Source: a virus (taxonomy: Duplodnaviria; Heunggongvirae; Uroviricota; Caudoviricetes). Taken from it: a DNA stretch of 64,000 nt. The DNA lies in IMG/VR virus record IMGVR_UViG_3300032296_003759, one strand, 5' to 3'. The translations under genes were made by a program, and so were the position numbers. The first letter of the stretch is position 1; every line of letters begins with the position of its first letter. Below are positions 36,047 to 36,472 of this stretch, piece by piece. The notes beneath the pieces were generated by a model. The model saw only the letters and a list, made by a program, of their open reading frames with translations. It was not told where the DNA came from and did not search any database.

Positions 36047-36472
36047 TTATAAATTTATTAAAAGTAATGTAAGATTATATCCAGAATGTAATAATACTGA
36101 GGATATATAAGAGTAATTATTTTTTATATATACCATAGAAAAAATTAGACCAAGTACTCCTTGTATTAAAACTCCATCATGTGATTCACCATGTCCCCAC
36201 CCAAAGATACATGAAGACATTATAATTACTGGTATAACATATTGATTACCAATACTTTTTGCTATTGTAATAGGACCATATCTATAAAGAGCTTCTTCCC
36301 ATAAAGGGGCCCATATACAAAGTATAAAGGCAATATAGTAAAAAGAGTCAGATTCCTCCGACTCTCCTTCTACTTGATGATAACCTATTTGTGAAAAAAA
36401 ATAATCTACAACGAGAATCCAAACTAAACATAGAATATAACCAAAAATAATATTTTTAATTTTTTTCCACAT
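36047..36472 (-). CDS. minimal CPBP/Abi-family (CAAX protease-like) intramembrane metalloprotease, 141 aa
   Basis: All three CPBP signature motifs are present in order: WEEALYR (EExxxR), FGWGH (FxxxH), HSGYN (HxxxN). They lie in predicted TM helices. Confidence 0.6.
   Translation of the reverse strand: MWKKIKNIIFGYILCLVWILVVDYFFSQIGYHQVEGESEESDSFYYIAFILCIWAPLWEEALYRYGPITIAKSIGNQYVIPVIIMSSCIFGWGHGESHDGVLIQGVLGLIFSMVYIKNNYSYISSVLLHSGYNLTLLLINL

Follow-up and report, generated by a model that had tools for sequence, protein, structure and literature searches.

A predicted minimal CPBP/Rce1-like intramembrane protease encoded beside a small lipoprotein gene in a crAss-like phage

A stretch of 64,000 nucleotides from a tailed virus of the class Caudoviricetes (IMG/VR record IMGVR_UViG_3300032296_003759), referred to here at its full length as the window, carries a gene for a membrane protein of 141 amino acids (aa) that is almost certainly a member of the CPBP/Rce1-like family of intramembrane proteases. 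The gene lies within a cassette of about 1.3 kb, in the order tRNA-Cys, a 30-aa open reading frame (ORF), an 81-aa ORF, a gene for a 44-aa lipoprotein, the CPBP gene and a gene for a 59-aa helix-turn-helix (HTH)-like protein. The CPBP gene and its motifs, the other components of the cassette and the surrounding terminator-like hairpins are as follows, with L-numbers denoting loci or contigs of CPBP relatives.

36047..36472, minus strand: predicted mini-CPBP (Rce1-like) intramembrane protease gene, ATG start, 141 aa, five predicted transmembrane (TM) helices
36281..36301, minus strand: motif 1, EExxxR, as W58-E59-E60-A-L-Y-R64; E59 is the presumed catalytic glutamate
36191..36205, minus strand: motif 2, FxxxH, as F90-G-W-G-H94; the His presumably holds the catalytic water with E59
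36074..36088, minus strand: motif 3, HxxxN, as H129-S-G-Y-N133; presumed oxyanion hole
36491..36625, minus strand: gene for the predicted 44-aa lipoprotein (MKKTVFLLILIVTLIS-CGSGE...), 18 nt upstream of the CPBP gene
36641..36886, minus strand: 81-aa soluble protein, 88-96% identical in L007, L010 and L012; no family match
36890..36982, minus strand: 30-aa Pro-rich ORF (MKKNDALFGCGCGKPRP...; MKKNDALFGCGCGKPRPATPPTRPIKPLKP) of uncertain coding status; no signal peptide
37042..37113, minus strand: tRNA-Cys (GCA) at the head of the cassette, called by ARAGORN and by the Rfam tRNA model (66.4 bits); the same tRNA occurs in L012
35793..35972, minus strand: 59-aa HTH-like protein, the last cassette gene; sub-threshold HTH_11, HTH_36 and RepL matches
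35748..35772, minus strand: terminator-like hairpin closing the cassette, a 9-bp stem followed by a T-run
37314..37333, minus strand: terminator-like hairpin after a 365-aa tail-region gene, upstream of the cassette
37122..37146, minus strand: second terminator-like hairpin, immediately upstream of tRNA-Cys

The first-pass annotation of this DNA, which left the strand unnamed, had placed at 36047-36472 an ORF of 141 aa with three CPBP motifs in order. All of this is present: WEEALYR (residues 58-64), FGWGH (90-94) and HSGYN (129-133) each occur once, in this order, in the product of the minus-strand gene. A profile search upheld the assignment, as the Pfam family PF02517, described as Rce1-like and formerly as 'Abi' or CAAX protease self-immunity, matched the protein at 48 bits (gathering score 22.4; E = 1.6e-12) over profile positions 4-92 of 93. 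A homologue search covering 5.8 billion proteins recovered 41 homologues of 134-224 aa, each with PF02517, and automatic pipelines already annotate relatives as 'membrane protease YdiL (CAAX protease family)'. In the resulting alignment of 42 sequences, W58, E59, E60, R64, F90, G91, H94, Q104, G105, G108, Y115, H129 and N133 are invariant, even though identity among the aligned homologues drops to 31-35%.

When the family profile was run exhaustively against 1.84 billion cluster representatives, 7,237 matched at E<=1e-3, of which 490 reached E<=1e-10 and 141 reached E<=1e-30; the best 150 clusters were nearly all 125-208 aa long and aligned end to end. On sequence grounds, the protein is one of a large clade of CPBPs about 140-165 aa long, whose architecture is a four-helix catalytic core with one N-terminal helix; the CPBP catalytic domain corresponds to TM4-TM7 of Rce1 and MrtX (PMC11980579). 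The earlier description of the protein as much shorter than a typical CPBP holds in comparison with MrtX (239 aa; PMC11980579) and with the solved chains of SpdC (248 aa) and MmRce1 (251 aa), and viral CAAX proteases reach 160-280 aa, but the small size is not peculiar to this protein, being the norm for a large subfamily. Similarly, the label 'intramembrane metalloprotease' survives in its first word, which fits the CPBP family, while 'metalloprotease' is a legacy term for what is now regarded as a glutamic-type family (PMC11980579; bioRxiv 10.1101/2023.06.07.544157). Rce1, MmRce1 and MrtX are accordingly classed as glutamic intramembrane endopeptidases, EC 3.4.26 (PMC11980579).

No curated NCBIfam subfamily fits the clade, whose members match the ABC_perm_CPBP, MrtJ, MroQ and MmRce1 models weakly (E <= 0.01). 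The MrtJ model (NF033192) is matched by 23 of the 42 family members, with a best E of only 1.9e-6, and is the top NCBIfam match of the query, at 22.6 bits against a 75-bit cut-off; the MroQ model is matched weakly by eight of the 42 (E <= 0.01, best 2.2e-7), the query itself having no match to it. The clade is essentially absent from PHROGs v4, in which the query has no match and seven of the 42 members weakly match phrog_28058. Neither megablast of 12 kb around the gene nor tblastn of the protein found a match among 50,697 GenBank phage records, and sequence and profile searches of PDB chains gave none even at E<=10. Among cellular genomes, sampled as one genome per species over 185,579 species, the only relatives were in metagenome-assembled genomes (MAGs) of Patescibacteria (31-46% identity), together with weak Bacillus matches. 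One candidate, P0049 (1593 aa, 175 bits to the family profile over 29 matched stretches), was rejected as a CPBP, being built of a tandem repeat of about 53 residues that contains SPLWQSLSFRYIP.

These subfamily results bear on the proposal that the protein is a bacteriocin-immunity or abortive-infection ('Abi') protein that protects the infected cell. Some CPBPs in Gram-positive bacteriocin loci do confer immunity (Kjos et al. 2010 as cited in PMC9298176), but this documented role belongs to Firmicutes loci and is not universal, SilX giving none (PMC9298176). Moreover, the cassette contains no bacteriocin or peptide-toxin gene, and the nearest curated subfamilies are matched only below threshold. 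The association with Abi phenotypes that the first-pass annotation mentioned for the family is likewise unsupported here, as is one with defence, since a search of PADLOC-DB at E<=1 with the CPBP, the lipoprotein and their neighbours returned no match except one negligible HTH. An immunity function is regarded as very improbable.

The AlphaFold2 model built from the homologue alignment, with a predicted local distance difference test score (pLDDT) of 93.7 and a predicted template modelling score (pTM) of 0.87, consists of five helices at residues 2-28, 44-74, 76-93, 98-117 and 122-140, with the motif residues on helices 2, 3 and 5. Family-wide net charge is +2.2 at the N-terminus, +2.1 in loop 2 and +1.0 in loop 4, against -1.3 in loop 1 and -0.8 in loop 3. 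Together, the modelled helices, hydropathy and this positive-inside bias indicate a predicted topology of five TM helices with the N-terminus in the cytoplasm. The motifs are thereby placed on predicted TM helices of a multi-pass protein, not outside the membrane, the outcome that the first-pass annotation had named as a refutation.

In a Foldseek search against viral models (BFVD), 'CAAX proteases' of giant viruses and metagenomic phages ranked at the top, with probabilities of 0.99-1.0 and query-normalised TM-scores of up to 0.71, and a Foldseek search of the model against the PDB found nothing. The model is nonetheless similar in fold to solved members of the CPBP family, the best structural match to a solved protein being SpdC of the SagB-SpdC complex, with 132 of the 141 residues aligned. 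This match speaks for a reading of the phage protein as a non-proteolytic scaffold or regulator of a membrane enzyme, such as a glycosyltransferase, a peptidoglycan hydrolase or the Band_7/SPFH protein of the phage. Non-catalytic CPBPs are indeed documented, and models for such a role are provided by SpdC with the glucosaminidase SagB, Abx1 with CovS and LnsB with LnsA (PMC9298176; PMC7387801). Two of the genomic contexts point the same way. In L031 (2679-3613), another crAss-like phage (large terminase, TerL, 30% identical), the CPBP gene overlaps, by its stop codon, the start of a Band_7 gene whose product is 38% identical to the Band_7 protein of the window (31731-32255), and in L002 and L016 an amidase gene lies two genes upstream of the CPBP gene. 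However, SpdC and LnsB have lost their catalytic motifs (PMC7387801; PMC9298176), whereas all of them are invariant here down to 31-35% identity, and the partner genes change from one context to another, making a scaffold an unlikely explanation.

Between clade members, the CPBP gene has a ratio of nonsynonymous to synonymous substitution rates (dN/dS) of 0.17-0.28, reflecting purifying selection, and the gene is therefore functional. The adjacent gene for a 427-aa protein has a dN/dS of 0.08-0.11, the CPBP gene evolving 2-3 times faster. All loci of this phage that were read hold an intact CPBP gene, and its sequence differs by 0-1 nt in five of them, which share the identical lipoprotein and derive from separate samples. 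The idea that the protein is a truncated CPBP or the product of a pseudogene was rejected on the basis of full-length coverage in 141 similar-sized clusters, purifying selection and the 132 of 141 residues aligned to SpdC.

Because all the catalytic residues are invariant, we infer that the protein is an active glutamic endopeptidase of the inner membrane. In characterised members of the family, the nucleophilic water is held by the leading Glu of EExxxR together with the FxxxH His, and the oxyanion hole is made up of the HxxxN His and Asn; cleavage immediately after a lipid-modified cysteine is described for Rce1 and MmRce1 and strongly inferred for the myxosortases (PMC11980579; bioRxiv 10.1101/2023.06.07.544157). 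By analogy with Rce1, MmRce1 and MrtX, the CPBP, expressed from its small terminator-flanked, moron-like cassette, would insert into the host inner membrane, where E59 and H94 would activate a water molecule, H129 and N133 would form the oxyanion hole, and a membrane-tethered peptide would be cut beside a lipid-modified cysteine. On balance, we lean towards an active inner-membrane endopeptidase whose substrate is a peptide held at the membrane by a lipid anchor or another tether, possibly the lipoprotein encoded next to it. The client requiring the fewest assumptions in this clade would be the presumably co-transcribed 44-aa lipoprotein, with its predicted lipidated Cys, invariant GSGE and variable acidic repeats; cleavage or maturation of this protein, or of a host envelope lipoprotein, would then lead to remodelling of the infected-cell envelope. 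The specific version, with the lipoprotein as client, is offered tentatively and is rather doubtful.

The lipoprotein gene stands where the first-pass annotation had put it, directly upstream of the CPBP gene on the same strand. Its product begins with the signal MKK / TVFLLILIVT / LIS followed by C17, a canonical lipobox of the form [LVI][ASTVI][GAS]C, and is predicted from these features to be a lipidated bacterial lipoprotein; no other ORF on the coding strand of the window has a canonical lipobox. The mature part would be an acidic peptide of 27 aa with VDSxx-type repeats, poor in Pro and without Cys beyond the lipobox. In L007, L010 and L012, the signal, the lipobox and CGSGE are invariant and the number of VDSxx repeats varies. 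A weak match to a PG1828-family lipoprotein was also obtained. The CPBP gene adjoins a gene for the identical lipoprotein in all seven of the places shown (the lipoprotein is found on at least 22 contigs). CPBP sorting proteases recognise a lipidated Cys, and among JDVT-CTERM loci the protease gene adjoins a single client gene in 16 of 17 (bioRxiv 10.1101/2023.06.07.544157; PMC11980579).

Several observations weigh against proteolysis of this client. The MrtJ match lies far below its cut-off, and some CPBPs, such as SpdC, Abx1 and LnsB, act without proteolysis (PMC9298176; PMC7387801). The pairing of lipoprotein and CPBP is confined to the closest, fully syntenic clade, so their adjacency is not independent evidence. 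In addition, relatives at <=51% identity (L003/L004, L013-L019, L028, L031 and L033) have no adjoining lipoprotein, and this rules it out as a client for the family as a whole. The Cys of the candidate client sits in an N-terminal lipobox and not in a C-terminal tripartite signal, and no minus-strand ORF of the window carries a C-terminal sorting signal of Cys motif, TM helix and Arg cluster. When the window was searched for CaaX-type C-termini and C-terminal TM sorting signals, nothing emerged but out-of-frame junk ORFs and a 261-aa protein at 60115-60900 without a Cys motif.

A more elaborate possibility, 'lipoprotein-shaving', is suggested by analogy and is unlikely. Once the host Lgt/LspA machinery had lipidated and trimmed the 44-aa prolipoprotein, a cut at the invariant C|GSGE would free the short acidic VDSxx peptide into the periplasm or medium to serve as a diffusible signal, decoy or exclusion factor, and such a cut after diacylglyceryl-cysteine would mirror the Rce1 cut after prenyl-cysteine. 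Just as speculative is its wider form, in which phages would use the whole clade as a set of tools to cleave envelope proteins with lipid anchors in infected Bacteroidota-type hosts, possibly together with Band_7/SPFH proteins.

Compared with known systems, the phage protein is distinguished by its economy and its setting. The solved chain of MmRce1 (PDB 4CAD) has 251 residues, and MmRce1 has at least eight TM helices with the CPBP domain at TM4-TM7 (PMC11980579; bioRxiv 10.1101/2023.06.07.544157), whereas the phage protein, with 141 aa and five predicted TM helices, keeps one helix before the core and nothing after the HxxxN helix; the prenylated CAAX substrate of Rce1 is not expected in the bacterial host of a phage. 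The myxosortases MrtX, MrtC and MrtJ are likewise bacterial inner-membrane CPBPs thought to cut by a lipidated Cys, and their genes often lie beside a single small client gene, as the phage gene lies beside that of the lipoprotein (bioRxiv 10.1101/2023.06.07.544157; PMC11980579). Unlike them, the phage gene is phage-borne and not housekeeping, and its candidate client has an N-terminal lipobox in place of the C-terminal Cys signal of myxosortase clients. SpdC/LyrA of Staphylococcus aureus (PDB 6U0O) is a scaffold or regulator that has lost the catalytic residues (PMC9298176; PMC7387801), all of which the phage protein keeps. MroQ, SilX and SagE are catalytic CPBPs of Gram-positive bacteria that mature small secreted peptides encoded nearby, but they belong to Firmicutes quorum-sensing or toxin loci and not to phages, and SilX has seven predicted TM helices (PMC9298176). 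The viral 'CAAX proteases' in BFVD, including those of Klosneuvirus, Orpheovirus and Homavirus and the phage entries A0A8S5VSK5 and A0A8S5VUJ7, are also virus-encoded proteins of the CPBP fold, although they are 160-280 aa long, 14-22% identical to the query and mostly from giant viruses of eukaryotes; their BFVD descriptions give no function.

The cassette is moron-like in its layout. Six terminator-like sites were observed in the region against 1.5 expected, and an Rfam scan recovered the tRNA alone. A sigma-70 promoter scan stayed at or below the shuffle expectation and is a poor guide where Bacteroidota or crAss-like phages are concerned. Within the 30-aa ORF, which is present in L007 and L010 and called on several contigs, the segment LFGCGCGKPRP is conserved, and the 59-aa HTH-like gene is kept downstream of the CPBP gene in L003-L012. 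As for the 'late region' of the first-pass annotation, the CPBP gene does lie inside the structural block, between the tail-region genes and the ring-protein genes, but it does so in a terminator-flanked cassette with a tRNA, so late expression does not follow.

Relatives of the gene occupy diverse genomic contexts. In L007-L012, in which the CPBP is 68-87% identical, the entire cassette is syntenic, including the lipoprotein gene, and in L003 and L004 (51% identity) downstream synteny is kept and a 56-aa non-lipoprotein ORF precedes the CPBP gene. Elsewhere, the gene repeatedly accompanies tRNA genes. It comes straight after a homologue of the 365-aa gene and ahead of an array of 21 tRNAs in L015 (5784-9567), after a tRNA array in L013 (2217-4780) and L014 (2518-4746), within an array in L017 (68-4585) and after tRNA-His in L022 (4690-4761); the tRNA-Cys of L012 lies at 4337-4408. 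This suggests that the mini-CPBP gene travels within accessory 'tRNA islands' on several otherwise unrelated phage contigs. Genes for sugar-modifying enzymes are also neighbours in at least two gene arrangements, comprising GT2, GT_PLOD, Glyco_transf_7C, a PglD-like acetyltransferase, pyruvyl transferase and DegT aminotransferase. GT2, GT_PLOD and PglD-like genes follow the CPBP gene in L001/L013 (5514-8044), L014 (5504-7623), L005 (2334-5264) and L030 (1743-2513), and pyruvyl-transferase, GT7C and GT_PLOD genes precede it in L028/L029 (L028 2988-5972). Their adjacency hints at a role in cell-surface modification. Homing-endonuclease-like genes lie beside the CPBP gene in some phage contexts. 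In L031 the neighbour is the Band_7/SPFH gene, and SPFH proteins partner with membrane proteases elsewhere, as in HflKC-FtsH and stomatin-NfeD. Clade members are found on phage contigs in almost every context sampled, the exception being the Patescibacteria MAG contigs; the tRNA-array, sugar-gene and crAss-like contexts therefore identify a mobile phage accessory gene that favours accessory islands.

Such surroundings bring in superinfection exclusion or envelope remodelling independent of the neighbouring lipoprotein. The protease would cut a host protein of the inner membrane or a lipid-anchored one of the envelope, for instance a component of a receptor or sorting pathway, or else a protein ejected by an incoming phage, with the small lipoprotein acting separately, in the manner of T5 Llp and the Cor-type receptor-blocking lipoproteins. 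The CPBP gene occurs without the lipoprotein in most phage contexts, repeatedly adjoins glycosyltransferase and other sugar genes, types that typically alter the cell surface in phages, lies in a moron-like terminator-flanked cassette and evolves faster than the 427-aa gene, all of which favours this explanation. Nevertheless, no target could be identified, the PADLOC search, which included candidate exclusion and defence proteins, gave no match, and the literature yielded no paper connecting CAAX proteases to superinfection. Exclusion of this kind is a serious alternative but on the whole improbable, and cleavage of a lipid-anchored or membrane-tethered peptide in the inner membrane remains the reading we prefer.

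New in this analysis is a large CPBP clade of minimal architecture that, apart from the Patescibacteria MAG contigs, is phage-carried wherever the context is readable. So are its occurrence in crAss-like phages, on which the literature search turned up no paper, and its recurrent link with tRNA islands, genes for sugar modification and, in the closest clade, a tiny lipoprotein. The literature likewise gave no report of function for any phage-encoded CPBP/Rce1-like protease, and most bacterial CPBP/Rce1-like proteases are without a known substrate. At 141 aa, a core and one helix, the protein is attractive for studying the structure and mechanism of glutamic intramembrane proteolysis, and a gene 18 nt away supplies a very small natural candidate substrate. 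From the viewpoint of phage biology, the CPBP gene is an accessory gene that recurs in crAss-like phages and other large phages from the environment, and its travel with tRNA islands and sugar genes points to manipulation of the host envelope. Were it merely one more CPBP, the outcome would be a correct annotation and little else.

The phage itself was characterised from the remaining genes of the window, which has all its large ORFs on the minus strand and a GC content of about 30%.

52704-54935: large terminase, PHROG match
49927-52701: portal protein, PHROG match
46885-48576: major head protein, PHROG match
33106-33801: ring protein 2, Pfam CrAss_Ring_2 at 49 bits (cut-off 27)
32255-33103: ring protein 1, Pfam CrAss_Ring_1 at 21 bits, below its cut-off
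31731-32255: Band_7/SPFH protein, 4 kb downstream of the CPBP gene
14465-17470, minus strand: 1001-aa protein with a C-terminal Peptidase_M23 domain (64 bits)
60115-60900, minus strand: 261-aa ORF from an internal Met (MKNINVTLGLALAILVMFFFLLRSCDNDE...), with a lipoprotein-like N-terminal signal, a polar middle and a C-terminal TM helix (KILIAVGAGILISKILL)
34441-35724, minus strand: 427-aa protein with PHROG exonuclease and DNA-repair-exonuclease matches and no Pfam family
37378-38475, minus strand: 365-aa protein just upstream of the cassette, with a Cys-rich N-terminus MSCNHNDECKDPCNSDPCYDNCGCLNPTTFEC
38498-39334, minus strand: 278-aa tail-region protein with a long Thr/Glu-rich C-terminal repeat (TTTTTSTSTSTT...EEIIE...)
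56242-56544, minus strand: 100-aa protein that is wholly a DUF1573/HYDIN-type Ig-like domain (70.8 bits), just upstream of the terminase region

In tblastn, the terminase matches its counterparts in crAss-like, Bacteroides, Flavobacterium and Cellulophaga phages at 25-28% identity. This identity and the terminase, portal, head and ring proteins therefore identify a divergent crAss-like phage, whose host is probably a member of the Bacteroidota. The same phage, recognised by the identical 44-aa lipoprotein, occurs on at least 22 metagenomic contigs from many samples, L035-L040 among them. Because the longest of these reaches 146,779 bp, the complete genome may be much larger than those of typical crassviruses of about 100 kb.

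These genes also allow a lysis function to be weighed, in which the lipoprotein would be an o-spanin and the CPBP a holin, an antiholin or a spanin partner. The late genes of crassviruses include those for lysis (PMC10136315). The pairing of a small lipoprotein with a membrane protein recalls a spanin or holin arrangement, and in L018 small membrane and coiled-coil ORFs precede the CPBP gene. O-spanins are usually Pro-rich with further Cys, whereas the mature lipoprotein here is acidic, has little Pro and carries no Cys other than that of the lipobox. Furthermore, no type-II coiled-coil i-spanin adjoins it; its 81-, 30- and 59-aa neighbours have no TM helix, leaving the CPBP as the sole membrane neighbour, and invariant protease motifs are not expected of a holin. 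A better candidate is the 261-aa protein at 60115-60900, which has no Pfam match and whose layout fits a unimolecular spanin. A lysis role for the lipoprotein and the CPBP is accordingly most unlikely. No classical endolysin was found in the scanned parts of the window, and the 1001-aa M23 protein is probably a virion-associated peptidoglycan hydrolase.

Around the cassette, the highly conserved 427-aa gene sits between the cassette and the ring-protein genes and is apparently its own terminator-flanked unit, with terminators at 35772-35748 and 34430-34413. On the other side, the tRNA-Cys gene comes right after the 365-aa gene, whose Cys-rich N-terminus is kept in L012 and L015; in L038, a 159-aa gene replaces the 365-aa gene. 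Thr-rich tails such as that of the 278-aa protein may be mucin-like or O-glycosylated fibre segments. A Thr-rich tail is also found in a 124-aa ORF just downstream of the CPBP gene in L002 and L016 (L016 5415-5789).

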